A stretch of 64,000 nt of DNA from the NCBI GenBank assembly GCA_963727825.1, contig CAVSHO010000014.1, positions 32,001 to 96,000 on the forward strand, read 5' to 3'. This DNA comes from Ignavibacteriota bacterium (GTDB lineage Bacteria; Bacteroidota; Ignavibacteria; UBA10030). The translations under genes were made by a program, and so were the position numbers. A model generated the notes under the pieces. It was given only the letters and a program-made list of their open reading frames with translations. It made no database searches and was not told where the DNA came from. Shown here piece after piece: positions 19,730 through 38,482 of this stretch (positions within the stretch are counted from its first letter, which is position 1; each line of letters begins with the position of its first letter).

Positions 19730-20254
19730 TTATTCTTTGTCATATTGGACAAGCGAATAAATATCGTACTTTTCAAGGTTTTTCCGTCCTTGAAGAAATG
19801 AAAGCTCGATAAGAAAAGATATGCCGACAATATTTGCTTGAAGTTTCTCAACAAGTCTCACAGCAGCGCACATAGTTCCGCCTGTTGCCAATAAATCATC
19901 GTGTAATAAAATACGTTCTCCGGGTTTGAGAGCATCCTTATGTATTTCGATTACATCGGTTCCATACTCCAAAGCGTACTCCTCTCTCATAACTTCAGCA
20001 GGAAGTTTTCCTTTTTTTCGTATAGGAACAAAACCTGCGCCCAAACTTACTGCTAATGCAGATCCGAGGATAAATCCGCGAGATTCAATGCATACAACCT
20101 TATCAATTTTTGAACTTTTATATCGCTTACTTAAAATATTAACGGCATCACACAATGCTTCGGCGTCTTTTAGAAGTGTAGTGATATCGCGAAAAACTAT
20201 TCCCTTCTTCGGAAAATCAGGAATGCTGCGGATGGTTTCAGAAAGCTGTTTCAT
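19730..20254 (-). CDS. apt: Adenine phosphoribosyltransferase
   Basis: IPDFPKKGIVFRDIT, ESRGF, RKKGKLP, LEYG, DDLLATGGT. Confidence 0.97.
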   Translation of the reverse strand: MKQLSETIRSIPDFPKKGIVFRDITTLLKDAEALCDAVNILSKRYKSSKIDKVVCIESRGFILGSALAVSLGAGFVPIRKKGKLPAEVMREEYALEYGTDVIEIHKDALKPGERILLHDDLLATGGTMCAAVRLVEKLQANIVGISFLIELSFLQGRKNLEKYDIYSLVQYDKE

Positions 20255-20269
20255 TGTTCACCTAAAAAA

Positions 20270-21052
20270 TTACCATTTTAATGGTTTTGAATTGAGAAAA
20301 GCGTCAATTCCCTTCTTGCAATCCTCTGTCATACGCGTCAACGCGTTTAGATGAGAAGCATAATCCAATGCATCACCCGTTTCCATTCCATAGACACGCG
20401 CGAGAAGTTCTTTTATCAATCCCATAGATGTACTACTGTTGTTTGTGATTAATTCGTTCGCCAGCTGCATACCTATTTTCTCTAAGTCGATTGATGGAAC
20501 AACTTTGCTGATAAGCCCGAGCTTAAACGATTCTTCTGCATCGATTAGATTGCCCTGCAGTACAAGCTCGCGAGCATGTCCTTCACCAATCCGTCTTACT
20601 AAATAAATCATAACGATCGCCGGGATAAGGCCCATCTTCGCTTCAGTATATCCAAACTTTGCTGTTTCACGCGCAGCTATAACGAAATCACATATAGTTG
20701 CCAATCCGCATCCGCCTGCAATTGCTTCTCCCTGAACAAGAGCAATAACTGGTTTTCGCAATGTATATATTTGTTGAAAGAGTTTCATCAAATCTGTCGA
20801 GTCTTGCAGATTCTGATTAAAATCGTATTTAGAAATACGTTCAAGGTAGGAATGTTCCAAACCAGAACAAAATGAATCTCCTTCTGCGCGTAATATCACC
20901 GCTTTGACTACAGAGTCTCTCTGCGTTTGTACAAATGCCTGGGTCAGTTCAGAAACCATTTGATCATCAAGGGCATTTTGTTTTTCCGGCCAATTGAGTG
21001 AGATAATCCCAATTCGTTTTTCGATTGTATATGTAATACGATAGAATTCCAC
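20270..21052 (-). CDS. Enoyl-CoA hydratase/isomerase family (methylglutaconyl-CoA hydratase-like)
   Basis: PEKQNAL, FCSG, KPVIALVQGEAIAGGCGL, FGYTEAKMGLIPA. Confidence 0.88.
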   Translation of the reverse strand: MEFYRITYTIEKRIGIISLNWPEKQNALDDQMVSELTQAFVQTQRDSVVKAVILRAEGDSFCSGLEHSYLERISKYDFNQNLQDSTDLMKLFQQIYTLRKPVIALVQGEAIAGGCGLATICDFVIAARETAKFGYTEAKMGLIPAIVMIYLVRRIGEGHARELVLQGNLIDAEESFKLGLISKVVPSIDLEKIGMQLANELITNNSSTSMGLIKELLARVYGMETGDALDYASHLNALTRMTEDCKKGIDAFLNSKPLKW

Positions 21053-21164
21053 ATGTCACCTTTTATGGTTGTGAAAGTAGCAAGAAGGGAAATGAAAAGC
21101 AATGTTTCAGATCGAGATGGAAAATAAATCTTGTAACTTTATTGTAATGAGGATAAATCCATAA

Positions 21165-21626
21165 CTATTTTTGGGCAGCAATTTTTATCCTTGTTGTTTC
21201 TTTTGGGCTTGAGAGAACAAGACTTGTTGTTGTTTTGGAAACACCCTGCCATGATTGGATTTTTGATAATAACTTTTCCAGGCCATCAGTGTTTTCTGTC
21301 CGCACTTTCAACAGATGCGTACCATTCCCTGTTATTGCATGACACTCTTGGATATCGTCTGTTTTCATAACATGTTCAAGAACAGTTTCATAGTGTTTCG
21401 ATGAGTCTACCGTAACAATGACAAACGCAGTAATGTCTTTTCCAAGACGTTTATGGTTCAGTTTTGCGTAATATCCTTGAATAATGCCATCCTCTTCAAG
21501 TTTATGCATTCGCTCACTTACAGCCGGAAGTGAGAGTCCTACCTTTTCTGCCAATTCGTTCCGTTTCGTTCTCCCTTCAACCTGGAGAACTTCAAGTAAC
21601 TCGCAATCTATTTTATCCAGCATCAT
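21165..21626 (-). CDS. Lrp/AsnC family transcriptional regulator
   Basis: LDKID..LL, ELAEKVGLSLPAVSERMHKLE HTH, ECHAITG. Confidence 0.93.
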   Translation of the reverse strand: MMLDKIDCELLEVLQVEGRTKRNELAEKVGLSLPAVSERMHKLEEDGIIQGYYAKLNHKRLGKDITAFVIVTVDSSKHYETVLEHVMKTDDIQECHAITGNGTHLLKVRTENTDGLEKLLSKIQSWQGVSKTTTSLVLSSPKETTRIKIAAQK

Positions 21627-21817
21627 AAACTCCACCCTTCTTTGCTAACGCATTATTCGATCTATACGATAATATATTAACACTTTCACAATATTTACCT
21701 GAAGATGTTAAGATTTCTATCAATAAAATGCAAGATATAATTAATAGAATATTAGTAAGCTATTTTAAATATTCCGCAAATCATGCAAAAGTGATAAATG
21801 TTATTGTGCAGCGGTCA

Positions 21818-22471
21818 TTACTTTGCGGCAGTTCGTAGAGAAACAATAGCTTTTTTTATAGACTTTGCCTTAAATACAGATGTTCCAGCAACAAGAACGT
21901 TGGCGCCTGCTTCAATAACGGAACGCGCGGTGTTTTGGTCTATTCCGCCATCAACTTCAAGCATAATTTCTCTTTTTGAGTGGCTAATCATTTCTCTTGT
22001 TTCATGAATTTTTCTAAGGGAATTTTTAATGAAGCTCTGACCTCCAAACCCCGGCTCAACAGTCATAATAAGAATCAAATCGACTTCATCGATTATATTC
22101 TGAATCGTAGCCACCGGAGTTGATGGATCAAGCGCTACCCCAGCTTTGCTGCCGCTTTCTTTTATCGCTTGAATAGTTCGATACAGGTGTGGACAAGTTT
22201 CCTGATGGACTGTTATAATATCTGCGCCGGCAGAACGAAATGAAGAAAGTAATTTTTCTGGCTCCTCAATCATTAGATGCACATCTAATGGGAGTTTTGT
22301 GCATCCACGAACTGCACTGACAAGAGGCGGGCCAAATGTAATATTAGGAACAAAATGTCCATCCATTACATCAAGATGAATTAAATCCGCTCCACCCTTT
22401 TCGGCTTCAACAACCTGTTTTCCAAGAATAGTAAAATCTGCGGCAAGCAATGAAGTAGCAATTTTAATCAT
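21818..22471 (-). CDS. rpe: Ribulose-phosphate 3-epimerase
   Basis: SLLAADF, HLDVMDGHFVPN, DVHLM, MTVEPGFGGQ, EVDGGI. Confidence 0.97.
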   Translation of the reverse strand: MIKIATSLLAADFTILGKQVVEAEKGGADLIHLDVMDGHFVPNITFGPPLVSAVRGCTKLPLDVHLMIEEPEKLLSSFRSAGADIITVHQETCPHLYRTIQAIKESGSKAGVALDPSTPVATIQNIIDEVDLILIMTVEPGFGGQSFIKNSLRKIHETREMISHSKREIMLEVDGGIDQNTARSVIEAGANVLVAGTSVFKAKSIKKAIVSLRTAAK

Positions 22472-22475
22472 ATAA

Positions 22476-23237
22476 TTAATTCTCGAGCTTGTTTTTTGTG
22501 TCTGTCTTTTGTGCAATAACTAAATCTATGGCTTGACCCAACTGTAGAAGTTCACCAGCTTTTGGATTTTGTTCAAGAATCGTGTTGGGAAGGATATCTA
22601 TATTGGTCTGATAAGTTGTTTTCCCAATCTGAAACCCATTATCGATGAGTATTTTCTCGGCTTCATCTAAGGTCTTCAACGAAACATCCGGTACCGGATG
22701 TTTATCCGTAGAGCGCCCTTGACTAACTGTGACATTGATACTATTGCCACCTTTTATTTTCACGCCTGGTTGAATTTCTTGGCTAATAATCGTGTTTGCA
22801 AATATTTCTTCTGAAGGTTCATACGAAATTGTTCCAAGCTTGAGATTAAATTTTTCAAGATTGAAAGCTGCCTCTCGTACAGACTTGCCCCTTAAATTTG
22901 GAACATCAACTAGTGCTTCTCCGCCGCTGATAGTTAAATATACTCCTCTATCTCGTTTTACTTCTGATTCAGCAATTGGGTTTTGTAACGTGATTGTACC
23001 GATTTTATACCTTTTATCATTTTTGTATTCTGCTTCTTTAGGATCTAATCCAGCTTCTTTGATTTTTTGTTTTGCATCTTCGAGAGATAATCCAATGACA
23101 TCGGGAACCTTCGTTGTCTTCCCCTTCTGAACATATAAAGGCATTAGAATATTGTTGAAAAGGAAGAAAATAATAAGTCCTATGATTGCAACAATGCCAA
23201 TTGGTATTGCAGCTTTTTTAATTTTATCTCTTTTCAT
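22476..23237 (-). CDS. PASTA-domain membrane protein (three PASTA repeats)
   Basis: N-terminal TM; VPDVIG, VPNLRG and VPDVS repeats each with Q-x-P. Confidence 0.92.
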   Translation of the reverse strand: MKRDKIKKAAIPIGIVAIIGLIIFFLFNNILMPLYVQKGKTTKVPDVIGLSLEDAKQKIKEAGLDPKEAEYKNDKRYKIGTITLQNPIAESEVKRDRGVYLTISGGEALVDVPNLRGKSVREAAFNLEKFNLKLGTISYEPSEEIFANTIISQEIQPGVKIKGGNSINVTVSQGRSTDKHPVPDVSLKTLDEAEKILIDNGFQIGKTTYQTNIDILPNTILEQNPKAGELLQLGQAIDLVIAQKTDTKNKLEN

Positions 23238-23587
23238 AAACAGATCGATTCTATTAACAATCGAATATAATTATTAATGGATTGAATTACAATGTGCTTC
23301 CACTTTTAGCATAGAATCATATATTTGAGCGATTTAGCTCTAAAACTAACCTGATAAGATATAGAAAAAACGTAAATGTGCTATTTCCTTATACAAGTTA
23401 AAGTGGTTTTTACAGGATTTCGAAACATTATAGGAATTATCGGCACCTCTGGATTTTTATTGCGAAAGTCTGCTTCACAATAAATTTATAATAATGTTTA
23501 TCATATGATTTTCATAAATTGCTTCTCAGTCTAATCTTCTATATATTTTTCACAATTGTCTTTCAATAATCAATTATTGCATAATCT

Positions 23588-24007
23588 ATGAAAAGAGAAT
23601 ATAGAGAACTCGCAAATGCCGCTCAAAAAGCAAAGCTCAACTCCTATTCTCCTTTTTCTAAATTCAGAGTCGGTGCAGCGCTTCTCACAAAGGATGGTAC
23701 AATTTTTACGGGATGTAATATCGAAAACAGTTCGTATGGACTTACGATCTGCGCAGAACGAGTTGCAATTTTTAATGCCATTTCATCAGGAGCATTAAAA
23801 TTCAAGGCTATTGCAATTGCTTCAGATTATCATGGTTTTATATCTCCATGCGGTGCTTGTCGGCAAGTTCTCTCTGACTTAGCTGGCGATATAGATTTTA
23901 TAATGGTAGATTCTAAAGAACGACTTAAAATTTTAAAACTCAAATCTCTTCTGCCCTTTGCATTTTCTGGAAAAAACTTGAAGCATCCAATTAAACTGAA
24001 GAAATAA
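23588..24007 (+). CDS. cdd: Cytidine deaminase (tetrameric type)
   Basis: [29 protein letters not shown]. Confidence 0.97.
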
Positions 24008-24009
24008 TT

Positions 24010-24585
24010 ATGGATACATCTGAATTGCATGATATTCCCCGTAATACCGGTTGGATTGAAGTAGTTTGCGGTTGTATGTTTAGCGGTAAAACTGAAGAAC
24101 TCATACGTCGTCTTCGGCGGGCACAAATTGCAAAACAAAGAGTCGTTGTTTTCAAACCTAAAATTGATACGCGATATAGCTCGGAGCATATTGTTTCGCA
24201 CAGCGAACAATCATTAAATGCTCTTGTAATCGAAGATGCTGATGAAATTTTGGACTTAGTTGGTGATGCACAGGTGATTGGAATTGATGAAGGCCAATTT
24301 TTTAAATCAAATATAGTCGACGTTTGTAATCAGTTGGCAAATCAAGGAAAGCGAATTATTGTTGCTGGACTCGATCAAGATTACAGAGGAAATCCTTTCG
24401 AACCAATGCCTCAACTCCTTGCTATATCAGAATATATCACCAAAACCTTAGCAATTTGTGTAGTATGTGGAAATCCTGCTGATAGGACTCAACGGAAAAG
24501 TGAGCAACACGAACTTGTTATTGTTGGTGCTAAGGATATTTATGAAGCAAGATGCCGAAATTGTCATAAACCTCCGAAAGAATAG
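24010..24585 (+). CDS. tdk: Thymidine kinase
   Basis: [21 protein letters not shown], Zn site CVVC...CRNC. Confidence 0.97.
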
Positions 24586-24615
24586 AACTACGGAGCACGA
24601 TCCATTTGCAGCTCA

Positions 24616-25461
24616 TTGATCAGTGAAAAATTGATTACAAAGAAGAAAATCAAAGATGCGTTGGGTTTTATTCGCGATGTTACAGATTTCAAACCTCAGA
24701 TTGCACTGATTCTTGGATCTGGGCTAGGTGAATTTACTAAGAATATTAGTATAGTCTCTTCAATTTCGGCATCTAAAATACCTAATTACCCTGTTTCGTC
24801 TGTTCAAGGTCATGCCGGAAAGCTTATTTTTGGTTATTTGCAAAAGGATTCCACAGAATCGACACCTCTTCTCATTTTTCAAGGGCGTGTTCATTTCTAT
24901 GAATTTGGATTTATTGACCGAGTCGTATTCCCGGTAATTATCGCACATCATATAGGTGTTAGAAAACTAGTTATTACAAATGCTGCTGGTGGTTTGAATA
25001 GTTGTTTCTCTGCGGGTGATTTTATGCTTATCAAAGATATCTTAAATCTCACTTTCCTACAGCAGCATTCAAAGAACAAAAAAAACGGGTTCTCGACTTA
25101 TGCTCCTAATGAATATTTTGACCATAAGATGCAACAAATGGTTCTTCAATGCGCAGCCCAACTTAAAATACCGATGCAACAAGGTACTTACTGTTGGTTA
25201 AAAGGTCCATCATATGAAACGCCATCAGAAATTCAGATGCTTAAGCGCCTCGGTGTCGATGCAGTCGGCATGTCAACTGTTCCAGAAATTTATACTTCCT
25301 TCAGTTTAGGAATGAAAACCGTTGGAATTTCGCTTATTTCAAACCTGGCTGCCGGTATTTCTAAGAACAAACTTTCGCATATAGAAGTTACAGAAACAGC
25401 AAACAATGTGAAGGAGCGATTCTCTGAATTAATGGAAAAACTTCTTCTTTCAATCAATTGA
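24616..25461 (+). CDS. punA: Purine nucleoside phosphorylase (trimeric, PunA/XapA type)
   Basis: ILGSGLG, GHAG, QGRVHFYE, TNAAGG, GPSYETPSE, DAVGMSTVPE. Confidence 0.92.
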   Translation: MISEKLITKKKIKDALGFIRDVTDFKPQIALILGSGLGEFTKNISIVSSISASKIPNYPVSSVQGHAGKLIFGYLQKDSTESTPLLIFQGRVHFYEFGFIDRVVFPVIIAHHIGVRKLVITNAAGGLNSCFSAGDFMLIKDILNLTFLQQHSKNKKNGFSTYAPNEYFDHKMQQMVLQCAAQLKIPMQQGTYCWLKGPSYETPSEIQMLKRLGVDAVGMSTVPEIYTSFSLGMKTVGISLISNLAAGISKNKLSHIEVTETANNVKERFSELMEKLLLSIN

Positions 25462-25499
25462 TATATCATTCTTTCACTTTTACTTTTTTTAGAATGCCT

Positions 25500-27143
25500 A
25501 TGAATTTTATACCATACAACGAACTACAATCCGGGGAATCAGGATTTTCCCGCCTTTTTGTCGACTATATTGACAATTATTCGCTCGTTAAAGATTTTTT
25601 CATCGGCGATTTTCGTGATAAAAAACTATGGCAATCACAAATTAATGCGGTGTCACACCGAGAAATTGATCGATCTTCGCTTGCCCAAGTTCTTTTAAAT
25701 CAGAATCGCGATTATCAATGCGGCATTAAGACATTAGCAAACATTGACCTTCTTCTTAGCGATAATACTGTTGCTATTGTCACTGGCCAACAGGTTGGCC
25801 TTTTCACCGGCCCCCTTTATACCCTGTATAAAATATTGACCACTCTCAAACTTACTGAGCAACTCTCTCAACAATATCCTGAATACAACTTTGTCCCAAT
25901 ATTTTGGCTTGAAGGGGAAGACCATGATATAGAAGAAGTAAGTTCTTTCTCTTTTCTCAATGCCTCAAATGAACTTCAAGAGCTGCGCTATCCATCTGAA
26001 GATAAAACAAGTGGGAATAATTTAGGTGCAGTTGGCGGTGTTCATCTAAGTGAATCAATAGGAATGCTTTTCCGCAATCTTCATCAAGCTTTGTTACCGA
26101 CAGAATATTCGCCAAAGGTTTTTGAGTTATTCGAAACAGCTTACCAAAAAGGAATGACCTTCAGCCGAGCATTTATCCATCTCGTCAATGTTTTACTTGA
26201 AGACTCTGGACTTGTTTTTTTCGATCCCCATAATCCTGATACAAAGAAAATACTAAAGCCGATCTTTGAACAAGAATTAAACAATATCTCGCACACATGT
26301 CGTCTTGTTATTACTCAAAGTGAGATTCTTGAAAAGCAGTATCAAGCTCAAGTTAAACCAAGGGCGGTAAATCTTTTCCTATTCCATAACGGCGGGCGAT
26401 ATGCCATAGAACCGCACGAGAATGGATTCTCTTTAAAAGGAACACGCCGCACTTTTAGTAAAGAAGAAATGCTTGGATTTCTGAATACTGATCCGAATCT
26501 TTTCAGTCCAAATGTTGTTCTCCGGCCAATCTGTCAGGATTACCTCTTCCCAACTCTCGCATATGTTGCAGGGCCATCTGAAGTTGCCTACTTTGCGCAG
26601 TTCAAGTTGCTTTATGAGAATTTTAACATACCTGAACCTATTATTTACCCTCGCTGCAGTGCAACTATCGTAGAGGAAAAGATTCAAAAGATTATCAATA
26701 AATATAGCCTTCAACCAAAGGATTTTTTCACTGATATAGAGGTTCTCAAGGAGCGAATATCCGCATCCATCTCTGATTTCAAGGTTGAAGAACTATTCTC
26801 AAATACATTTGGAACTGTATCTGAAAGTTTAACTAGTCTAAAAGATGGCTTAGAATCAATCGATCCAACACTTGTCCCTGCAATGGAAAACACTCTTGTA
26901 CGAATGCAGGGCGCACTTAACGGTTTGAAAGAGAAGACTCTTGCTGCTCAAGTACGTCAGCATGAAATATCATTTCGCCAATTGGACAAAGTGTCAATTA
27001 GTCTCTTTCCAAATTCTAACTTGCAAGAACGAGAAATGAATATTATTTATTATTTGAATAAATATGGATTAGAACTATTACGATGGTTACGCAGTGAACT
27101 TGTTCTTGACAAATTTATGCACCAGATTATCAGTCTTGAATAA
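25500..27143 (+). CDS. bshC: Bacillithiol biosynthesis cysteine-adding enzyme BshC
   Basis: VTGQQVGLFTGPLYTLYK, PIFWLEGEDHD, FSPNVVLRP, YVAGPSEVAY, LQER; start uncertain (25494 or 25500). Confidence 0.92.
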   Translation: MNFIPYNELQSGESGFSRLFVDYIDNYSLVKDFFIGDFRDKKLWQSQINAVSHREIDRSSLAQVLLNQNRDYQCGIKTLANIDLLLSDNTVAIVTGQQVGLFTGPLYTLYKILTTLKLTEQLSQQYPEYNFVPIFWLEGEDHDIEEVSSFSFLNASNELQELRYPSEDKTSGNNLGAVGGVHLSESIGMLFRNLHQALLPTEYSPKVFELFETAYQKGMTFSRAFIHLVNVLLEDSGLVFFDPHNPDTKKILKPIFEQELNNISHTCRLVITQSEILEKQYQAQVKPRAVNLFLFHNGGRYAIEPHENGFSLKGTRRTFSKEEMLGFLNTDPNLFSPNVVLRPICQDYLFPTLAYVAGPSEVAYFAQFKLLYENFNIPEPIIYPRCSATIVEEKIQKIINKYSLQPKDFFTDIEVLKERISASISDFKVEELFSNTFGTVSESLTSLKDGLESIDPTLVPAMENTLVRMQGALNGLKEKTLAAQVRQHEISFRQLDKVSISLFPNSNLQEREMNIIYYLNKYGLELLRWLRSELVLDKFMHQIISLE

Positions 27144-27461
27144 ACTATTTACGCACCCAACTTTAGAACCTTCCGAAGGTCTCAGCAGATCTAGTTTGAC
27201 CTTCGGAAGGTAACCTTGTATTCCTCGTTCCCGAGCTCCTTTATCCGCCATTTTGTTGGCGGGGCTTGGGAACGCCACTTCTGAAAGCTCCGCTTTCTTC
27301 CTTGTTACGAAGCAGAGCTTCAACCACTTCCGTTCCCAACAACTTGCCCGACATTCTTTGTGGCGGGGATGTTGGGAACAAGATAACTATTTACGCACCC
27401 AACTTTAGAACCTTCCGAAGGTCACAGCAGATCTAATTTGACCTTCGGAAGGTAACCTTGT
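27143..27461 (+). repeat. 77-bp direct repeat (27143-27219 / 27385-27461) containing the accttccgaaggt..accttcggaaggt REP
   Basis: Two copies differing at 2 positions, 242-bp period, bracketing REP element X. Confidence 0.9.
27224..27382. repeat. Four-hairpin REP element X, filled copy (110 bp + 24 + 25 nt inserts)
   Basis: ctcgttccc...gggaac / gaaagctccgctttc / gaagcagagcttc / gttcccaac..gttgggaacaag; homologous to 29471-29580. Confidence 0.9.
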
Positions 27462-27462
27462 G

Positions 27463-27606
27463 ATGACTGATATTTATGGTTTTAAGCATACTTATTATAC
27501 TAGTTCTGATACTGTTATTGACGGCAAGAACGCATCTACTCCAGCAGGAACAAATACTAATACTGCTACTTCATCATCTTATAAGAGTATCAGTATGGAG
27601 ATATAA
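27463..27606 (+). other. Probable 3' fragment of a foreign gene (47-codon Ser/Thr-rich frame)
   Basis: Open frame MTDIYGFKHTYYTSSDTVIDGKNASTPAGTNTNTATSSSYKSISMEI* begins immediately after the repeat boundary and converges on the pseudogene. Confidence 0.35.
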
Positions 27607-27649
27607 TAGTACAATAATATTTTTTTAGTTATATTTCTTGTGCCTTTAT

Positions 27650-29000
27650 AGTTTCTCGATTTTGTTAATGGTATCATGTGCTTGTTGCACCTTGATATGA
27701 ATGCCTCATCTTCAGGAATAATATATGGTCCACGCCTCTGTTGTGACAGAACCATATCCTACATCTTCTTTTCTTGAGGAGGTTCCACCAGTTGCATATT
27801 GAGTTCTCTGCAGTTCATGACACATCAGGAGCCATACAGGTACCTGTCAGCCATGCCATGCGAGGTGTTTAATCCAACAATATACCTCTTAGGCCTATTA
27901 TCAGCAAACATCTCTTCGAGATATGTTGTTCCATCTTGTCCACCCACTGGTGATGTTACATCGTCTTTAGCATAGATTAAATCTATTGCTGTAAAGTCTG
28001 TCCCCTTATAAGATTGGTTTACAATAACATATTTTGCAGTCTTATCAGTCTTATTCCATGAATCCACAGCACCCTTAACAAATGCCCACCATGCTGCAGG
28101 ACAATTAGCAGAATCCAAAAATAATTGCATAGGATAATGCGGTGTCCGGCATGTTTCAATAGTTGGATTTATATATGTTTGCCAGTATATTTGAAATAAA
28201 TCCAACTCAGTAGTTACATCCGTTGCCAATGGATAGTCTAGATTTCTCTTCGGAAATGCTGCATGATCATAAGTTGTTGTGCCGTCGAATTCATCATCAA
28301 TATATGTTTCAAACCTGTTCTGTGTCGAATCACTAAAAGACATAAAATTAGTAGACGATGTTTTTTTCAGACTACTTGATGTTTTGTCTAAATTTTTTAG
28401 TGCGTTTATCCCGACTTGTTCATGCCCTATAATATCATCCAAGCTAAAGTTTGTATTGTTGCTTACTGCTCCATCTTTTTGGTGTATATATTTTAGTGTG
28501 ACTAGATCTTTTTGAGTCATGATTCTAATGAAGTATACTCCGTTAGCGACTTCTTGTCCGCCGGAATTTTTTCCATCCCATCGTGCAGTATGTATGCCTG
28601 GATGTAGAACATCATCAACAATAGTTTTTACTTCTTGTCCTAGCATGTTGTATACTTGTATTGTTACATGTGTTGTTCCGGGAATATTGTATCCGACTAC
28701 AGATTCACGTCCAGGGTTTGGGAATACTCCTGCACCAAATTTATATGATATTGGAGCCTTATTTTCTACAGCAGTAGGAGTGTCTAGAGTCATCTCATAA
28801 TTTCCTTTAGCATCACTAGTTGCTTTTCCAACTTTACCATTCTACGATGCTTGAACATTTACACCACTAACTGCGCTAGAATCCTCAGCAGAAAATATAT
28901 TACCATGAATAGTTTGAGAATATAATGGAGATGCAGCTATTGCTAAAGCCGCAGCCATCCAAAAAGCTCCACGTTTAATACCTCGTAAGATTTTACTCAT
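27650..29000 (-). pseudogene. Decayed secreted protein: signal peptide, carboxypeptidase-regulatory-like segment, FlgD-Ig/T9SS-CTD-like domain, metallopeptidase-like C-terminus
   Basis: ATG 29000 MSKILRG...ASPLYSQ; in-frame TAG at 28842-28844 separates it from ORF 27825-28793 (same frame); FPNP...VYNMLGQEV...WDGKN..G..VANGVYF; shifted frame near 27840 gives VWLLMCHELQR; 3' end approximate. Confidence 0.7.
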
Positions 29001-29020
29001 ACAATCATCATAGACGTCAG

Positions 29021-29040
29021 TATTTATAAACTTTACGGTT
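29021..29040 (-). promoter_or_regulatory. Archaeal-type BRE + TATA-like element
   Basis: AACCGTAAAG-TTTATAAATA followed by 20 nt and then the ATG, with no Shine-Dalgarno. Confidence 0.45.
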
Positions 29041-29147
29041 GTAGTTACTGAGATCATATATAACCTCCCAGCCAAAATACAAAATATTTCTATAGCGGTA
29101 TTTAATTCCGCAAATAAAGTCCCATTTCATATAAGAATTAACCGAAT

Positions 29148-29266
29148 TGAGAGGGGATTTTCCCGAAGGGATGGGGACGGCAAGGGGTGTGTCATTTATT
29201 CTTGCGTCCTTGATCTTCCAGCAATCGACTTCACACACCCCTGTGGTCCCCCTCTGGAGAGGGGAC
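29148..29266. repeat. cccctct..agagggg / aggggtgtgt palindromic repeat doublet (type often found beside DUF559 genes)
   Basis: gagaggggattt...aaggggtgtgt and acacacccctgtggtccccctctggagaggggac; related copy in-frame in the R-M gene at 9670-9698. Confidence 0.7.
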
Positions 29267-29268
29267 GT

Positions 29269-29466
29269 TCATCCTTTAGCGTGTGTTATCCGAGCTTCAA
29301 TCCATTCCCGCAACTGCTCAACAATACCATCAACATTGCACTTCACATCCGAATCCCAAAATCGCATTATTGTCAACCCCAACGATTCCAGTTTCTCCTG
29401 TCTAATTCGATCGGCCTATTCCCTTCCGTCATGGGAATCGCCATCTATCTCAAGAATTAATTTCAA
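29269..29466 (-). pseudogene. DUF559 (Vsr-like endonuclease domain) C-terminal remnant
   Basis: Manual translation LKLILEIDGDSHDGRE*ADRIRQEKLESLGLTIMRFWDSDVKCNVDGIVEQLREWI; internal TAG at 29416-29418; 5' half replaced by REP element X. Confidence 0.8.
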
Positions 29467-29470
29467 TCAC

Positions 29471-29580
29471 CTCGCTCCCAAGCTCAGCTTGGGAGTGCCA
29501 CTTCTGAAAGCTCCGCTTTCTTCCTTGTTACGAAGCAGAGCTTCAATCACTTCTGTTCCCAACAAGATGTTGGGAACGAG
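29471..29580. repeat. Four-hairpin REP element X, empty copy (110 bp)
   Basis: ctcgctcccaagctcagcttgggag...gttcccaacaagatgttgggaacgag; terminal inverted repeats. Confidence 0.9.
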
Positions 29581-29972
29581 ATAGCATCACCATTTTCGTC
29601 ATTTTGAAATATTAATATTTATACCTTCTTAGAAGAAACCAGTTTCTGCCAAAATCCAGGAAATGAGATATCTGCACAATCGGTATTTTCTATAGTAATA
29701 TTAGGAATTCTAAGCCCTGCTACTCCGAATGACATTGCAATCCGATCTTCCTTGTTACGAAGCAGAGCTTCAATCACTTCTGTTCCCAACAAGATGTTGG
29801 GAACGAGATAGCATCACCATTTTCGTCATTTTGAAATATTAATATTTATACCTTCTTAGAAGAAACCAGTTTCTGCCAAAATCCAGGAAATGAGATATCT
29901 GCACAATCGGTATTTTCTATAGTAATATTAGGAATTCTAAGTCCTGCTACTCCGAATGACATTGCAATCCGA
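29519..29972 (+). repeat. 227-bp tandem duplication (half of REP X plus the aroA 3' end)
   Basis: 29519-29745 and 29746-29972 are identical apart from one substitution seen (taagccctgc / taagtcctgc). Confidence 0.92.
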
Positions 29973-31129
29973 TGATCACCATAACTAGGAATTAATGCGC
30001 CTGAGTAATTTTTCTTCCCTTCAAAAGCAAATCCATCTTCATATTCTTCTATATCACAGCCCAATAAACGCAGATTATTCACAATAGCATGAATTCGATC
30101 AGTTTCTTTCGTTCTTAGTTCTCGCGCATCGTGAATGCTAAAACTGCCCTCTGCAAATAAAGCTGTAATCGAGAGAATTGGGATTTCATCTATAAGATCA
30201 ACCACTTCTGCACCACGTAGATCAATATTACTTTTCAATTCCGAATATTTGACAACAAGATCACCAATAGGTTCACCTTCGACGATTCTTTCATTTTCAA
30301 CTTGGATATTACCACCCATTGTTTTGAATATATCCAAAATGCGTCTTCGTGTCGGATTAAGCCCGACATTTTGTATTGTGATATTTGATTCCGGCACAAT
30401 CAATCCAGTGGAAAGGAAAAACGCTGCTGCTGACATGTCTCCGGGAACAAAAAACTTCTTACCGTCAATTTTCATATCTGATTGGACTTCAACAACATTG
30501 CAGCCATTTATTGTTGTTGATCTCAAACCGAGCATTCGTTCAGTATGGTCGCGTGTTTTTGAATTTTCAATAACCGTTGTCAGACCGTCAGCAAAAAGAC
30601 CTGCAAAAAGTAACGCAGATTTGACTTGTGCACTTGGTATAGGCAAGGTATATTGAATTGAATGAAGCTGTTCAACTGGTTCAATAAACAGTGGCGCAGT
30701 ATTTGTTTCAGTACCATAAATATTTGCACCCATTTGTCGAAGCGGATCGATGATACGTTTCATTGGCCGCTGGCATAATGAAGAATCTCCAATAAGAACT
30801 GAATTAAATTTTTGTCCAGCAAGAATACCTGAAAGCAATCGCATAGTCGTACCTGAGTTGCCCGCGTTTAATGGCGCGGAAGCTTTCTGCAATCCGCGGC
30901 GTCCTTTACCATAGAATGAAATGTAATTTCCACGCTCGTTGATTTGAATTCCAAGTTGCTTAATACATGAAAGTGTACTAAGAGGGTCTGCAGCGTGCGA
31001 ACACGAGCTTATTTCCGATACACCGTCTGCAATTGCGCCTATCAAAATGGCTCGATGAGAAATGGATTTATCCCCTGGAACTTGTAAAGTTCCCTTAAAT
31101 CCTTTTATCTGTGGTATCGTAAGATTCAT
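29846..31129 (-). CDS. aroA: 3-phosphoshikimate 1-carboxyvinyltransferase
   Basis: PGDKSISHRA, GNSGTTMRL, RPMKR, SAQVKSA, RDHTERM, DEIP, ELRTKETDRI, GDHRIAM. Confidence 0.97.
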   Translation of the reverse strand: MNLTIPQIKGFKGTLQVPGDKSISHRAILIGAIADGVSEISSCSHAADPLSTLSCIKQLGIQINERGNYISFYGKGRRGLQKASAPLNAGNSGTTMRLLSGILAGQKFNSVLIGDSSLCQRPMKRIIDPLRQMGANIYGTETNTAPLFIEPVEQLHSIQYTLPIPSAQVKSALLFAGLFADGLTTVIENSKTRDHTERMLGLRSTTINGCNVVEVQSDMKIDGKKFFVPGDMSAAAFFLSTGLIVPESNITIQNVGLNPTRRRILDIFKTMGGNIQVENERIVEGEPIGDLVVKYSELKSNIDLRGAEVVDLIDEIPILSITALFAEGSFSIHDARELRTKETDRIHAIVNNLRLLGCDIEEYEDGFAFEGKKNYSGALIPSYGDHRIAMSFGVAGLRIPNITIENTDCADISFPGFWQKLVSSKKV

Positions 31130-31200
31130 AAAAGAAATCCTCACACCGTTTATAAATTGTTTGTGATGTGAGGATATGTGCTCCTTGAAGTTGGAAATGG

Positions 31201-33373
31201 TTAACGACGCGGACGCCGGTCGTCCCTGCCTCCATGATGATCTGATTTTTTGCGTTCACGGGAACGCTTCATTTCCTCGCCTGCATTTTCTCCACCAGGC
31301 AGCAATGCTTTATGACTTAGGCTCATTTTCCCATCTGGATCGATGTGCATTAATTTAACTTCAAGAATGTCTCCTACTTTCACAAAGTCGTCCACCTTTT
31401 CAACACGCTGCACATTTAATTGGGAAACGTGTACGAGTCCTTCTTTTCCCGGAAGAATTTCAACGAATGCACCAAAGTCTGTAATCTTTTTTACAGTTGC
31501 TTTATACACTTTATCTATTTCCGGCAATTCAGCAAGACCACGAATATAGAGCATCGCTTTATCTGCAGATTCTTTTTCTACCGCTGCAACTGTAACCGTA
31601 CCGTCATCTTCTACATTGATTTCTGCACCGCTATCCTTGACGAGCTGACGAATATTTTTACCGCCAGGCCCAATCAATGAACCAATCATATCTATCGGGA
31701 TCTTTATAGTTTCCAAACGCGGTGCATACTGAGAAATTTCAGTCCGTGCTGTTGAAAGGCATGTAGCCATTATATCAAGAATATGCATTCGTCCTTCTTT
31801 CGCTTGAGCAAGAGCTTTCTCAAAAATCTCGAATGAAATACCTTTGATCTTAATATCCATTTGGAATGCAGTAATTCCGACATTTGTGCCGGCAACTTTG
31901 AAATCCATATCACCTAAATGATCTTCGTTTCCAAGAATATCACTAAGAATGGCAACCTGATCAGATTCCTTCACTAAACCCATTGCAATACCGGCAACAG
32001 CCCGCTTCATTGGAACTCCAGCATCAAAAAGTGAAAGTGTACCTGCACAAACCGTTGCCATCGAAGATGAACCGTTTGATTCGAGAATATCAGAAACTAC
32101 GCGAATAGTATAAGGAAATTCTACTTCGGTCGGAATCAATCTCTTAAGCGAACGCTCAGCAAGATTTCCGTGACCAATTTCACGCCGTCCAGTTGAACCA
32201 ACTCTTCCAACCTCGCCAACAGAAAATGGCGGAAAATTATAGTGGAGCATAAAACGTTTTGTTGTTTCGGGTAACAGACCTTCGAGTACTTGTTCATCCA
32301 TTTTTGTCCCAAGTGTCGCACTTGTAAGACTTTGTGTCTCGCCGCGAGTAAAAAGTGCTGAACCGTGCGTACGCGGGAGAATTCCAACCTCGCAAGTAAT
32401 CGGTCGTATATCTGTCAAACCGCGTCCATCAAGTCGTTTACCATCGTTAAGGATAGTTGATCGCATTGCATCACGTTCGATATCGTGGAGTAATTCATCT
32501 ATAAGTGGTTCTTTCTCAGGATATTTTTCCGCCAAAGAAGCTTTGATCTCATCACGCACTTTATTCGTTTTTTCAGATCGTTCCTCTTTTGTCATCACTG
32601 TGCGGCTTAATTGTTTCATCTTTGCTTCTGCAAGTGCAGTAACTTCATCTTTCATACCAGATGGAATTTCCGGAACAAGTATATTCCGCTTTCGGCTTAT
32701 TGACTTCCTGAGCAAGCTCAACCTGAACAGAACAAATGCTCTTTATTGCTTCATGACCGATTCGCAATGCTTCAAGCAAATCATTTTCTGAAGCTTCAGC
32801 AGATTCACCTTCAACCATAACAATAGAATCAGGTGTTCCAGCTACTGTGATGTCTAAATCGCTTGAATCCAGTTCCCTGAATGTCGGGTTCACAATATAT
32901 TTTCCATCAACACGACCTACTCGTACTTCCGCAATTGGACCATCAAATGGAACATCAGACACCATCAAAGCTGCTGATGCCGCACAAGCGCCAAGGACAT
33001 CGCCATCATGTTCCATATCAGAAGAATAAACAGTGACAAGAACTTGTGTTTCGTTTTTATATGTCTTGGGAAACATCGGTCTAATAGGACGGTCAATCAA
33101 TCGAGAGGATAATATTTCTTTTTCAGTCGGACGTCCTTCGCGCTTGAAAAAACCGCCTGGAATTTTCCCTGCAGCTGCCGTTTTTTCACGATACTCAACT
33201 TGCAATGGGAAAAAATCCTGACCTTCTACGGCTTCGTATCCGCTCACTACTGTCGCCAGCACCATTGTGTCTCCATATCTAACCATTACTGCGCCATGTG
33301 CTTGTTTTGCAAACCTGCCGGTTTCCAGTGTGAATGTTTTTCCGTTAAGTTGTATTTCCTTTGTGACCATCAT
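31201..33373 (-). CDS. pnp: Polyribonucleotide nucleotidyltransferase, split by one frameshift near 32690
   Basis: [14 protein letters not shown] and RLIDRPIRP in the 5' ORF; [38 protein letters not shown] and S1 in the 3' ORF; removing one base from CCG-AAA-G joins them. Confidence 0.93.
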
Positions 33374-33439
33374 AGTTACCTGCTTCTTTCTTCTAAAGAA
33401 CCGCGTACTAAAAATTGATATCATTTATAGCGCATTTAA

Positions 33440-33709
33440 TTACTTACGTATATCAAGCTCTTGAATAATCTTTCGATAGCGCGCAATATCTTTTTTCATT
33501 AAATAGTCTAGCAATCGGCGCCTCTTGCCGACTAATTTCAGCAAACCCAGCCGGGCATGATGATCTTTTTTAAATGTATCAAGATGCGGGGACAAACTGT
33601 CAAGAGTGGCTGTTATGATGGCAATTTGCACTTCAGGAGTACCAGTATCTGAAGAATTCTTGCCATATTTTCCTATTATTTCTTTTTTTTGCTCTGTTGT
33701 AATTGGCAT
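33440..33709 (-). CDS. rpsO: 30S ribosomal protein S15
   Basis: [34 protein letters not shown]; AAGGAG RBS. Confidence 0.97.
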
Positions 33710-33751
33710 TTTAGCTCCTTGTAAATTGTAATTGTACTGCAATCATTCTAT

Positions 33752-34696
33752 TCAATTATTTTTATATTCAAGCTGTAATACGCTGCTCAATTCTTTGTCT
33801 TTGTGCATTTGCTGAATAAGTTGCTCAGCGGTATCAAATTTAAATTCATTGCGCATTTTACGCAGGAAATTGATTTGAATATCTAATTCATAAATATCTT
33901 TATCAAAATCAAGAATATTTACTTCAATAGTACGTTTACCTAACGGTTGAAATGTCGGACGCACTCCAATACTCGCCATACCAAAATAATTGTCCTTATC
34001 TACATTGACCTTCACAAAATAAATACCGTTATCAGGAACAAGCTTCTTTTGCGAATCAAGCATAATATTTGCCGTTGGATAACCGAGAAGACGTCCCCTC
34101 CCGTCACCTGCGACAACTTTCCCCCGTAAGGCATATGGCCTGCCCAATAATTTTGCCGCACTTTGTACCCTTCCTTGGTTTAACGCATCTCGAATTATGG
34201 AACTACTTATCGGATTACCGTTAAGAGTGAATTGTTTAATATTTACAACATCAAATTCAAATTCTTTCCCCAGCTGTATCAAGGAGTCAATTGTCCCTTC
34301 GCGATTTCTTCCCCAGTGATGATCATACCCTTCTACCACTAGGCTTATTCCAATGCCATTAATAAGATATGTTATATAGAAATCTCGAAAGCTCTGATTT
34401 GAAAACGCTTTGTCAAATTCAATCACAACAAACCAATCAACACCCAACATCTCACATAATTCTTGACGTTCTCGCAAGGTTGTTAGAAGTTGCACCTTTG
34501 TCTTGGCATCTGCTAATATTTCTCGCGGATGCGGTTCAAAAGTCACCACTACACTTCTACCATTCCTTTTTTTCGCAAGAGCAACTACTTCTTTTATAAT
34601 TTCTTGATGGGCAAGATGAACGCCATCAAATGTACCAACTGTAATAGTCGAATTCTTGTCAAACGGAATCTCATTAATTTGTTGAGCTAATTTCAT
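33752..34696 (-). CDS. ribF: Bifunctional riboflavin kinase / FAD synthetase
   Basis: GTFDGVHLAHQ, TFEPHP, ISSSIIR, GRLLGYPTAN, GVRPTF. Confidence 0.96.
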   Translation of the reverse strand: MKLAQQINEIPFDKNSTITVGTFDGVHLAHQEIIKEVVALAKKRNGRSVVVTFEPHPREILADAKTKVQLLTTLRERQELCEMLGVDWFVVIEFDKAFSNQSFRDFYITYLINGIGISLVVEGYDHHWGRNREGTIDSLIQLGKEFEFDVVNIKQFTLNGNPISSSIIRDALNQGRVQSAAKLLGRPYALRGKVVAGDGRGRLLGYPTANIMLDSQKKLVPDNGIYFVKVNVDKDNYFGMASIGVRPTFQPLGKRTIEVNILDFDKDIYELDIQINFLRKMRNEFKFDTAEQLIQQMHKDKELSSVLQLEYKNN

Positions 34697-34703
34697 GAAA
34701 GCT

Positions 34704-35408
34704 CTAATTATTTTTGAAGATCGAATTCCGCCAATCAATCAATTGTTCTATTGTCATAGCATTAGTGATACGATGATCGCCAATACGTGTTCTCCTCAGT
34801 GCTGTCAATGTTGCACCGCATCCAAGTCGCAGACCAAATTCATCAATCAAAGAACGAATATATGTTCCCTTTGAGCAAACGATACAAAAATCAATATATA
34901 AATCACGAATATCAACAATATCAAAGCTTAAAATATTTATTTCTCGCTCAACACGTTCTACTGCTTTTCCGGCTCGTGCATATTTGTATAACGGTTTCCC
35001 GCCATATTTTACTGCGGAGTACATCGGCGGCAACTGGAGTTGCTTGCCGATATAACTTTGAGCTATCTCTTTTATTTTCCGTTCGGTTATTGTAGAAGAA
35101 TCCCTCCATTCATGAGGCTCTGTTTCCGTGTCAAAACTTGGAGTGCGCACTCCAAGTTTACAAGTACCTGTATATTCTTTTTCTAGCCCGACAAATTGCT
35201 CAATAGTTTTTGTTTTCTTGCCTGTACAAACAATCAATAAACCGGTTGCGTTTGGGTCTAAAGTTCCAGCATGTCCCACTTTCCGCACATCAAAGAGCAC
35301 TCTTACTTTCTTAACAACATCAAAGGACGTCCAATCTAAAGGTTTGTCGATGAAAAGAACCACACCTTCAACTGAAAAATCATGTTGCAATAATTTCTCT
35401 TCACTCAT
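34704..35408 (-). CDS. truB: tRNA pseudouridine(55) synthase
   Basis: DKPLDWTSFDVV, GHAGTLDP, PPMYSA, CSKGTYIRSL. Confidence 0.97.
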   Translation of the reverse strand: MSEEKLLQHDFSVEGVVLFIDKPLDWTSFDVVKKVRVLFDVRKVGHAGTLDPNATGLLIVCTGKKTKTIEQFVGLEKEYTGTCKLGVRTPSFDTETEPHEWRDSSTITERKIKEIAQSYIGKQLQLPPMYSAVKYGGKPLYKYARAGKAVERVEREINILSFDIVDIRDLYIDFCIVCSKGTYIRSLIDEFGLRLGCGATLTALRRTRIGDHRITNAMTIEQLIDWRNSIFKNN

Positions 35409-35785
35409 GCATCAGCCGAATTTTTCTCTTCTTCTTTCTTTGAATCATTCTCATGAATTTTATTAAATATATTCTCAAGTTTCATTGCCCTATCCAGGGA
35501 TTCATCTAAATAAAAGATAATCTCAGGTGTAAAACGCAATCGCACTGCATGGCCGAGCATAGAGCGAATCGATGATTTTTGTGCTTCTAATTTGGTGAAG
35601 CTCTTTTTCTTTTGCTCTTCGTCTCCAAAAATACTTAAATAAACTTTTGCGACCTTAAGATCGGGACTCATTATTACATCTGTTACAGTTAAAAAACCGT
35701 AATCGTTCATGCTGAAGTTACGTTGAAACATTAAGCCCAATTCCTCTTTGATGAGCGATCCAACTTTTTCAGATCTAACAGACAC
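35405..35785 (-). CDS. rbfA: Ribosome-binding factor A
   Basis: TVTDVIMSPDLKVAKVYLS, LRFTPEIIFYLD; between infB and truB. Confidence 0.95.
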   Translation of the reverse strand: MSVRSEKVGSLIKEELGLMFQRNFSMNDYGFLTVTDVIMSPDLKVAKVYLSIFGDEEQKKKSFTKLEAQKSSIRSMLGHAVRLRFTPEIIFYLDESLDRAMKLENIFNKIHENDSKKEEEKNSADA

Positions 35786-35795
35786 ATTCTATCCT

Positions 35796-38482
35796 TTATT
35801 CCAATTTGCGTTTAGTTTCAACAGTTCTATATGCTTCAATAATATCGCCATTCTTGATATCGTTGAAGCTTTCAAGACTAATACCGCATTCAAACCCTTG
35901 TTCGACTTCTTTTACATCATCTTTGAACCGTTTCAGCGATGCAATAGTTCCGTCAAACACTTCGATGCCATCACGTACTAGGCGTACATGATTGTTCCGT
36001 ACAATTTTGCCATCTCTAACATAGCAACCAGCAATTGTTCCGATTTTAGATATTTTGAAGACATCTCGAACATCTACCGTTGCAGTAACTTCCTCTGTTA
36101 CAGTTGGAGCCAATAAACCTTCCAGAGCTTTCTTCACATCATTAATAGCATTATAAATGATATTATAGATTCTGATGTCAACATCTTCGTGTTGTGCTAA
36201 TTGACGCGCTTTGAGATTCGGACGTACATGGAATCCAATAATCACTGCACTGGATGCCATAGCGAGCAATACATCTGATTCAGAAATACCACCGACACCT
36301 TTATAGATGACTTGCACTTTGACTTCATCTGTCGAGAGTCTCATCAAAGAATCCGAAAGAGCTTCTGCTGAACCATCCACATCAGCTTTGACAATAACCG
36401 GTAGATCACGCACTTGCCCTTCTTTGATTTGTTGCGAAATATCATCCAATGTCACTCGTCTGTTTTGCCGGAAATCTTGTTCTCGTTTTAATTGCTGGCG
36501 TGTTAAACTAATTTCACGTGCTTGATGTTCGTCTTCAATGCCAACAAGATCATCACCCGCTTGTGGAATACCGTCAAAACCAACAACTTGGACAGGTTGC
36601 GATGGTTTAGCCGCTTCTACTCTTTGACCTCGCTCATCAAACATGGCTCTTACGCGTCCACTCCAAACGCCGCAAACAAATGAATCGCCAATACGCAGAG
36701 TACCTTTCTGTACTAAAATTGTCGCGATAATTCCTTTGCCCTTATCTAATTCAGCTTCTACAACAGTTCCGCGTGCTTCTCTATTTGGGTTTGCGCGAAG
36801 ATTCAACATCTCTGCTTCTAGTAGTATTTTTTCGAGGAGCAAATTAATATTGGTTCCTTTCTTAGCAGAAAGTTCGACTGCTTGATGCTTTCCCCCGTAT
36901 TCTTCAATCAGAATTCCGTGTTCGGCCAATTGTTGTTTTATCCGTTCAGGATTAGCTTCTACTTTATCAATTTTATTAATCGCAACAATTATCGGAACGT
37001 TTGCTGCTTGTGCATGACTTATGGCTTCTACGGTTTGAGGCATTACACTATCATCTGCAGCTACCACCAAAACAACAATATCCGTAACTTGTGCGCCTCT
37101 GGCACGCATTGCGGTGAATGCCTCGTGACCTGGTGTATCGAGAAACGTAATCTGTTTATTACTATCAACTGTGACTTCGTAAGCACCGATATGCTGTGTT
37201 ATTCCTCCTGCTTCACCAGCGACAACATTTGCACTTCTAATATGATCGAGCAACGATGTTTTGCCGTGATCGACGTGCCCCATAATCGTGACAACCGGTG
37301 CGCGCTGAATAAGTGTCTCTTCTTCATCTTCAATATCCGAAAGCGCTTCTGATGAAAACTCTTCTTCAAAATCCACTTGGAATCCAAACTCATCAGAAAC
37401 TAGAGTAATTGTATCTTTATCTAAACGCTGGTTGATGGAAACCATAATGCCAAGACCCATTACTTTTTGTATGACTTCAGCTACAGTTACCTGCATTAGA
37501 TTGGCAAGTTCACCAACAGTAACATATTCAGTTACTTTGATGCGCATCTTATCATGTTCAATTTGATCGAGTTTTTTCTGTTCTTCCTCTTCTCTCTTTT
37601 CTTTTTTCTTTCGTCTTATGGCTGCACGTGCAATCGCCAACTCGTCGCCTGACTCAGCAAGAGTTTCCCGAATTGCTTTTGCCACTTCATCTTCATTGAC
37701 CTCAGCACGTCGAACTCGTTTTCGTTTTCTTGATTTTGATTCTTCTTCATCTTCCGATTTGCCTGGTGCTGATTTAGTTTTCTTAATCTCATCACGAACT
37801 TTTTTCTTTTTCTTTTTTCTTTTCTCTTCTATATCCGGTTTTTGATTACCTCGAGCAGGCGTTAGATCTATCTTTCCTTTGATTGTTAATCCGCGCTGCG
37901 AACGCGCAACAACAGCTTCCAATGGAGTCTGCAATTGCTTTTTTGCCCGTCCTGCTGGTTTGTCTTTGCTTGGAGTCTCTCCTTTGGTTTCTCGGTTTTT
38001 GTTTCAACGACTGGCGATGGCGGTTCAGCTGATATTTCTGTAGTTACGACTTCTTTTTCAGGTTCAGGTATTTCTTTAACAGAAATTTCGATTGTCTCTG
38101 TTACTATCGGCTGTGGAATTTCTTTCACAGCATGAATCAATGGTTCCTCTATTGTGGGTTGCTGCGCTTCCTTTTGCACAGGAATATCTTCTTTTCCTGC
38201 GGCTTTCTTTTCAACTTTCTCAACTGTTTCTGTTTTTTCAGGAGTTTCCTTCTTCCGTGTAGAACGGAACTCTTGAATTTTACGTTGATGCCTCTCTGCA
38301 ACTTCCTTGTCTTTCTTAAAATGGCCCATAATAACAGGCATCATATCCTCGGTCACAGAGGACATGTGTGACTTCACATCGAAGCCTTTCTTTTTAAGGA
38401 AGTCAATGATTGTTTCGCTTGAAAGATTTAATTCTTTCGCGAGGTTGAAGATCTTCATTTTTTTAAAGCTCTGTTCAGACAT
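35796..38482 (-). CDS. infB: Translation initiation factor IF-2, split by one frameshift in the N-terminal linker (about 37890-38000)
   Basis: IF2-N IFNLAKEL in the 5' ORF; GHVDHGKT, GGITQHIG, DTPGH, NKID and LKRFKDDV in the 3' ORF. Confidence 0.94.

Follow-up and report, generated by a model that had tools for sequence, protein, structure and literature searches.

The two segments by which the long form of a repeat, designated X, exceeds its short form in the genome of an Ignavibacteriota bacterium are copies of a small hairpin (hereafter referred to as M), each located in the loop of an X hairpin, and M very probably constitutes a discrete insertion module that targets such loops. The window is the whole stretch of DNA analysed, 64,000 nucleotides in length; the genome that holds it is designated G000 and the contigs of this genome are given C numbers, C14 being the contig of the window. 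The explanation considered best as a whole, and likely to be correct, is that M is a loop-targeting module of a single hairpin, which was inserted into X and would be moved in trans. The features of the window and the families of hairpins occupied by M are listed in Table 1.

Table 1. Features of the window (positions as in the window) and host families of M in G000, with empty and filled copies counted by pattern.
Feature	Position	Strand	Description
Y-left	27144-27219	+	76-nt repeat with two ACCTTCCGAAGGT-type palindromes; flanks X-long
X-long	27224-27382	+	159-nt repeat; two terminal hairpins, M in the loop of each
M insert 1	27240-27263	+	24 nt; TTTA leader, TCCGCC/GGCGGG stem; in loop of X 5' hairpin
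M insert 2	27343-27367	+	25 nt; CTTG leader, imperfect CCCGAC/GGCGGG stem; in loop of X 3' hairpin
Y-right	27386-27461	+	second copy of Y-left, in direct orientation, beyond X-long
X-short	29471-29580	+	empty X of 110 nt; no insert in either hairpin loop
X-short 3' half, local duplicate	29746-29812	+	empty 3' hairpin and right flank; 100% identity, 67 nt
Third M copy	2065-2089	-	TTTG leader, CCCGTC/GGGCGG stem; no recognised host repeat
Type-4 RAYT-like Y1/HUH gene	11209-11703	-	one of about 7 paralogues; candidate trans-acting enzyme only
Host X, 5' hairpin			5 empty, 2 filled
Host X, 3' hairpin			2 empty, 3 filled
Host F			GTAG-tagged palindrome; 25 empty, 3 filled (short pattern, chance matches included)
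Host E			GGGAGAACATCTCCC hairpin; 2 filled (short pattern, chance matches included)
Host G			AACCTTGTCAAGGTT palindromes; 3 empty, 4 filled
Host K			repeat of more than 60 nt with empty copies at 98% identity (60 nt); 9 empty, 1 filled
Host P			6 empty, 1 filled
Host T			further M-filled family; 1 empty, 1 filled
Hosts Q, S and others			further M-filled families

Removal of the two inserts (24 and 25 nt) from X-long leaves 110 nt that align with X-short without gaps and are identical to it at 102 of the 110 positions. The difference of 49 nt had been attributed to exactly two inserts in an earlier reading made from the letters alone (the sequence-only reading), which had placed both inserts correctly to the base; its description of the first site is incomplete in one respect, in that the single loop base also differs there, being A in X-short and C in X-long. 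Folded alone, inserts 1 and 2 form hairpins of -6.5 and -5.4 kcal/mol, values equalled by 1 and 2 of 200 shuffles, respectively. X-short folds into two terminal hairpins, and the fold of X-long (-40.6 kcal/mol, z = -7.4) retains both X stems with the hairpin of an insert at the apex of each, in agreement with the proposed location of the inserts in the loops. The inserts have the same orientation, forming direct repeats about 100 nt apart, and no duplication of the flanking bases is visible, as had also been claimed. The observation regarding the two inserts is thus confirmed as real.

A second full copy of X-long, 98% identical, is present at C8:61546-61707, and the 25-mer of insert 2 recurs without change at the same site of X at C8:61667 and C8:57770. 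The filled long form is represented in G000 by two full copies and one partial copy (C8:57753-57839). X-long is sandwiched between two direct copies of the repeat Y, of which the C8 copy of X-long has the left one only; the ACCTTCCGAAGGT-type palindrome family of Y also flanks a RAYT-like gene at C7:111441-112031. The local duplicate of the 3' half of X-short sits about 275 nt downstream of the original. Metagenome contigs (four runs of one study, low depth) compared with positions 20001-36000 of the window showed one ambiguous joint between two X copies; they revealed no difference between strains in the presence of M and are uninformative on M over this region. One such contig (run X2) joins 27144 straight to 29608 with 35 other letters between, and a related strain therefore seems to be without the whole 2.46-kb stretch 27145-29607, which contains the Y-X-Y arrangement, an ORF with a T9SS domain and X-short.

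M is 23-26 nt long and is made up of a 4-nt YTTR leader (CTTG, TTTA, CCTG and similar), a YCCGCC/GGCGGR stem of 6 bp and a loop of about 8 nt that is rich in T. A relaxed structural scan of G000 yielded 86 candidates, from which a core list of 35 copies was curated by eye, with three copies added by pattern and two found later. Two candidates were left out as doubtful (C1:261195 and C10:198594); pattern matches in other repeat families (CCTGCCCGCAGC-type) and a two-way palindrome at C7:122223 were left out as well. The 10-mer YTTRYCCGCC is followed by the complementary arm within 5-10 nt at 18 of its 76 occurrences in G000, as compared with 1 of 53 for the reversed pattern. The closing pair of the stem covaries (T-A 7, C-G 6, T.G 3, mismatch 2; n = 18), and a double change, CCCACC/GGTGGG, is present in one copy. 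The recurrence of M throughout the genome, with its leader and stem fixed, points to more than chance. Ten of the 35 copies lie inside a stop-to-stop frame of at least 100 aa.

M shows a strong preference for hairpin loops. Perfect stems of at least 5, 6 and 8 bp between the two flanks, starting no more than 5 nt from the junction, were found for 17, 14 and 10 of the 35 copies, respectively, whereas 5.8%, 2.1% and 0.5% of 20,000 random non-ORF positions had such stems; the claim of the sequence-only reading that the module targets other hairpins is borne out by this comparison. Where a host stem is present, M lies 0-2 nt from its 3' arm in 16 of 17 copies and 1-5 nt from its 5' arm in all 17, offsets that would allow the stems of M and the host to stack, with the leader as a 5' bulge. 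The bases preceding M vary and are often T-rich (TTA 20, CTT 14, TTT 12, GGA 11, CGA 9; n = 101, a set that excludes 12 cross-phylum loci, six of them one orthologous actinobacterial coding locus and six judged by eye to be chance matches of coding-like character). No regular target duplication was found at the junctions of the 35 G000 copies; CTTG stands on both sides of M at C11:430762, which could represent an ambiguity of 4 nt. A replication-strand bias was likewise not found, 18 of the 35 copies being on the G-rich strand; elements of the IS608 type do show such a bias.

The distribution of M extends well beyond G000. The strict pattern YTTRYCCGCC-N7-9-GGCGGR matched in 30 of 41 genomes of the order, G000 included, and in all 15 relatives from the genus (1-24 matches each), the reversed control pattern giving 0-2 matches per genome in the 41. 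With a narrower pattern and one genome per species, 108 stretches from many phyla were obtained, including assemblies labelled as Ignavibacteria, Ignavibacteriales, Melioribacteraceae, Bacteroidota, Kryptoniota, Desulfobacteraceae, Desulfatiglandales, Pirellulales, KSB1, Omnitrophota and others; a closed 'Deltaproteobacteria' chromosome carries five M loci. Six actinobacterial matches, which represent one orthologous coding locus, were rejected as M. Strict matches number 12-52 in each of four genomes of other phyla, with 0-1 in the controls. An identical 24-mer of M was found in at least six unrelated host contexts in different phyla.

M also occurs within its own kind. One copy in G000 (C12:12694) lies in the loop of another M; nesting in an M-like loop was observed for 23 of 101 copies, and in the genomes of other phyla it reaches a depth of 3-4 and is always balanced. 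In a Desulfobacteraceae-type genome, five M copies are arranged head to tail with an exact period of 24 nt (G043:C38:4025-4144), and nesting 3-4 deep is seen nearby. The S repeat (..GCAGCTTAGCGCC..TCCGTTAGG) is the commonest host of M with a CTTG leader in the related genomes. S repeats adjoin some of the five genes for IS110-family (DEDD) transposases, four of them identical, that lie within 20 kb in G000 (C11:4917-24345).

For the other hosts in G000, the left and right flanks of every M copy (35 in all) were joined, and the genome was searched for an empty paralogue spanning the junction. Such a paralogue was found for 20 of the 35 copies (three of these being weak), in at least ten unrelated repeat families; three further matches of joined flanks, being self-overlaps or M-like, were not counted. 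The counts of empty and filled copies by pattern are given in Table 1, those based on short patterns (E, S, Q and F) including chance matches, as exemplified by the 199 'empty' matches of S. In the nearest species (G009 and G005) the genes are 83-87% identical to those of G000, and the intergenic DNA at the M site C7:127917 is too diverged to be scored. Discrete boundaries at other copies had been set as a test by the sequence-only reading, and a fixed insertion point was indeed observed in at least ten unrelated repeat families of G000 with empty copies. From the comparison of filled and empty sites, and from this alone, we infer that M is mobile. The interpretation offered earlier, that of a single-hairpin mobile unit targeting hairpins, is supported by these comparisons of sequence. 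As to its narrower form, a parasite of REP elements, the targets are hairpin loops in general, those of REPs, of terminator-like hairpins and of M itself, and not of REPs alone.

The direction of the change in X was examined by a search with X-short in 15 relatives from the genus, 12 of which gave matches. Over 27 X loci of these 12 relatives, 29 empty 5' hairpins and 20 empty 3' hairpins were counted; M was seen at neither, and there was one 'other' insert at each. As the search recovers the filled copies of G000 itself through the X core, filled copies in other genomes were detectable; M was found in an X-type hairpin outside G000 only in G014, twice, beside an IS200-like gene. Within G000, the 3' insert is present in four X-type copies (the long copies on C14 and C8, the partial copy at C8:57753-57839 and, on C7, a diverged copy whose 3' site holds another subtype of M) and absent in two independent ones (X-short, with its local duplicate, and C11:280234). 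A long ancestral form, from which X-short would have arisen when both modules were lost, whether deleted or precisely excised, might be read into this pattern, since the filled partial copy differs more from X-long (6 differences) than X-short does (2 differences, both counted from the alignment). Such closeness would imply that the insert was precisely excised or that the same 25-mer was inserted a second time, so that the X copies of G000, taken by themselves, appear ambiguous with regard to direction. It is the X hairpins of the outgroup, mostly empty and never with M in the 27 loci, that identify the long form as derived; in addition, C11:280234, which is the most divergent X copy of G000, is empty, and M resides in at least ten unrelated hosts whose copies are mostly empty. 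An ancestral long form, named by the sequence-only reading as the outcome that would count against it, is therefore largely refuted as a general account and is considered highly improbable; a single precise excision in the lineage of X-short would itself be a property of a mobile element.

A different alternative holds that M does not move by itself: an apical segment would pass between hairpins via short homology, whether in recombination, in gene conversion or in a template switch at a stalled fork, and the composites would spread as ordinary REPs. Composites do multiply, host P plus M being multi-copy in G001, G010 and G013, a palindrome of H plus M recurring in G012, G001, G008 and G009, and nested M-in-M units being repeated in G004; the frequent T-rich bases before M are, moreover, leader-like. 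However, the hosts have no mutual homology beyond their hairpin form and yet all contain one 24-nt unit whose boundaries do not change, nested copies always gain the 5' and 3' halves jointly, and the identical 24-mer occurs in unrelated contexts of different phyla, which makes this alternative unlikely. Still less probable is a mainly functional role of M in cis, for instance as a binding site or as a hairpin (RNA or DNA) that serves a conserved factor of the host, its spread being due to selection for this role and not to selfish movement. The conservation of all 24 nt, the loop included, across phyla and the low copy numbers of about 10-50 per genome would suit a function; no Rfam family, on the other hand, matched positions 26500-30000 of the window at E-values up to 1, no gene context common to the M positions was found, nesting 3-4 deep and tandem arrays of 24 nt would be hard to account for by function, and the entry of the unit into loops would be left unexplained. 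A role in cis is compatible with insertion into loops and does not exclude it.

In the preferred explanation, that of an inserted module, M acts like a tiny non-autonomous insertion element that enters stable DNA hairpins at the single-stranded loop of their apex, the hairpin being a REP-like palindrome, a terminator-like hairpin or another M. The landing point is the junction of the loop with the 3' arm of the host, or a position no more than 2 nt from this junction, and after insertion the stem of M can stack on that of the host, with the leader and the old loop as a bulge on the 5' side. The filled composite hairpin is then copied with the host repeat, which accounts for the two full copies and one partial copy of X-long. 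The number of these filled copies indicates that the composite of X and M was itself copied afterwards, both insertions into X being old and later copied together with it. Copies of M that are identical within G000 share their host family, which suggests that most of the copying may be done by composites and not by M on its own; G000 shows no trace of a burst of M in recent times. Insertion itself would proceed by cutting and joining of a single strand in trans, by a Y1/HUH enzyme (RAYT or IS200-like) that reads the leader and the hairpin.

Enzymes of the IS200/IS605 type insert into single-stranded DNA without duplication. A search of G000 with PF01797 gave nine matches, among them one intact IS200-type TnpA (C7:128205-128641; NF033573, 95.6 bits), four RAYT-like proteins, two proteins of a third type and one fragment; RAYT-like examples are those at C10:250144-250698 and C7:111441-112031, and a type-3 protein is encoded at C7:141830-142420. 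A RAYT-like protein of 'type 4', most copies of which are missed by PF01797, has eight matches at about seven loci in G000, and the type-4 proteins score 59-73 bits against NF047646, under the cut-off of 80. The type-4 gene of the window (Table 1) is an open frame of 183 aa that shares 55% identity with a protein of 190 aa in G015, a closed genome of the same genus, and its score against NF047646 is 59.2 bits (cut-off 80); it is not among the nine Pfam Y1_Tnp matches of G000, and it is flanked on both sides by the direct repeat TTGCAAACAAGCAAAGGGTTT(C/G)GTAG. Another type-4 gene (C7:244521-244900) is broken just past the HUH motif by a GTAG-tagged F palindrome (GGTAGAGACGTTCAATTGAACGTCTCTAC). 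A near-identical type-4 gene with an M-filled upstream hairpin is found on two contigs (C6:12000-13000 and C11:278700-279500), which may represent a true duplication or redundancy of the assembly, the contamination estimate of which is 6.55%. One 20-kb stretch (C7:121700-141900) contains seven or eight of the about 35 M copies along with a Y1 gene of type 3 and the IS200-type gene that is intact. Desulfobacterota-type genomes encode multi-copy proteins of 330-416 aa (L175, G041:C1:1262013-1262996) that combine a RAYT-like Y1 domain with a C-terminal part, which may resemble the C-terminal DNA-binding domain of DnaA.

The Y1 genes of G000 are flanked by REP families of their own (Y, G, E-like and F-like), and M is found beside them only as a guest within their GTAG-type REPs. 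No M was found within 1.5 kb of the type-4 genes in G015, G013, G004 and G011, and a Y1 homologue was found at only 2 of 108 cross-phylum M loci in the stored stretches. The type-4 protein was not found in G043 and G044, despite the 44 and 52 M matches of these genomes. Among 41 genomes, both M and type 4 are present in 25, M only in 5, type 4 only in 5 and neither in 6, a weak co-occurrence that is confounded by kinship. No specific link to M was obtained for the PF01797 proteins, for the type-4 protein by adjacency or co-occurrence, for the neighbours of the large Y1 fusion proteins, for recurrent neighbour proteins, for IS110 or for Y2_Tnp, the control of the last search having matched nowhere. 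That a Y1/HUH enzyme moves M is conceivable, and falls somewhat short of being probable.

The SDR repeats of the Nostocaceae nest in one another and share a hairpin fold. In the accessible passages of the papers concerned, they are 21-27 nt long, are called mobile and are set precisely in other short sequences, SDR5 between bases three and four of the palindrome HIP1 (PMC4390886, PMC5861425, PMC13756078), and SDR-like repeats are reported there as absent outside the Nostocaceae (PMC5861425). SDR4-6 (Elhai et al. 2008, Genome Res 18:1484), as far as their accessible descriptions go, are like M in size (23-26 nt) and in the precise junctions of filled and empty sites. M differs from the SDRs, which are represented here by their descriptions in citing papers, in phylum and sequence, in a target defined by loop structure and not by HIP1, and in its spread across phyla. 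A cyanobacterial origin of G000 itself was considered and rejected, as HIP1 is not enriched in it (31 occurrences against about 20 expected), it carries BshC and T9SS-domain genes, and its relatives are labelled Ignavibacteriota or Ignavibacteriales. On the strength of these partial descriptions the SDR elements are the nearest precedent, and M is classed with the very small mobile repeats.

As far as the accessible text of the respective papers goes, REPs are defined by a GTAG/GTGG (or CGTC) tetranucleotide 0-2 nt from the foot of a hairpin (PMC6006769, PMC3733652), the inverted REP doublet was argued by Bertels and Rainey (2011) to be the replicative unit (PMC3116915), and Di Nocera et al. 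(2013) mention palindromes of A. variabilis, T. roseum and H. neapolitanus that have REPs 'inserted within' them (PMC3733652). A literature search for 12-mers of M gave no match, the supplementary lists of REP families in PMC3733652 and PMC6006769 lying outside its reach, and the accessible literature on nested or loop-inserted REPs yielded only passing remarks of the Di Nocera type and the SDR passages. M resembles the REP/REPIN-RAYT systems as a short repeated palindrome with a 4-nt tag by the foot of its hairpin, in a genome rich in RAYT-like genes and GTAG REPs, and like REPs it is a short, imperfect and mostly extragenic palindrome (35 copies, 6-bp stem). Its tag, however, is YTTR in all curated copies, and GTAG belongs to the REPs that host M (families F and H); no cognate RAYT gene with M on its flanks was found, M being a guest inside REPs; and its copies are single and do not form the one long hairpin of an inverted REPIN doublet.

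IS200/IS605 elements and PATEs have two distinct subterminal hairpins and a length of at least 100 nt; they insert on the lagging-strand template, 3' of a tetra- or pentanucleotide that does not vary. M would share with the IS200/IS605 elements a hairpin-dependent insertion into single strands without target duplication, and differs from them and from the PATEs in being one 24-nt hairpin that has no distinct end hairpins, no fixed target word on its 5' side and no strand bias. The combination of terminal inverted repeats with a target-site duplication, which defines classical MITEs, is also not seen in M, whose junctions lack a regular duplication. Clusters of G+C-rich hairpins in fungal mitochondria are mobile, measure no more than 30-50 nt, and enter A+T-rich DNA and each other; they are organellar and have been reported to leave short duplications. 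They are like M as small hairpins that insert into one another, the sequences being unrelated. As the defining features of REPs, of IS200/IS605 derivatives and of MITEs are absent, M is placed outside any named family.

A wider reading, held tentatively and regarded as rather doubtful, is that M represents the first member to be recognised of a class of loop-hopping hairpins across phyla and, at about 24 nt, the smallest self-contained mobile unit, moved by an enzyme apart from the REPIN doublet. M would then enter the tip of any stable hairpin, its own included, to give recursively nested hairpins, and the mover would be a conserved enzyme.

The usual view is that REP-type repeats move as doublets, about 100 nt in length, and to our knowledge mobile repeats of less than 30 nt have so far been argued for one cyanobacterial family only. 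M is a single hairpin of 24 nt with clean filled and empty sites, many unrelated hosts, a target defined by structure and the ability to nest in itself, and its sequence is nearly invariant in Ignavibacteriota-, Desulfobacterota- and Planctomycetota-type genomes; it would rank among the smallest insertion elements known in bacteria. For annotation, composite hairpins in these genomes are to be regarded as mosaics and not as single families. If actively mobile, M would set a lower size limit for a transposable unit, its leader and hairpin together with a hairpin-loop target would provide a defined substrate for orphan Y1/HUH enzymes, and its insertion would be a route by which REPs and terminators gain longer stems.
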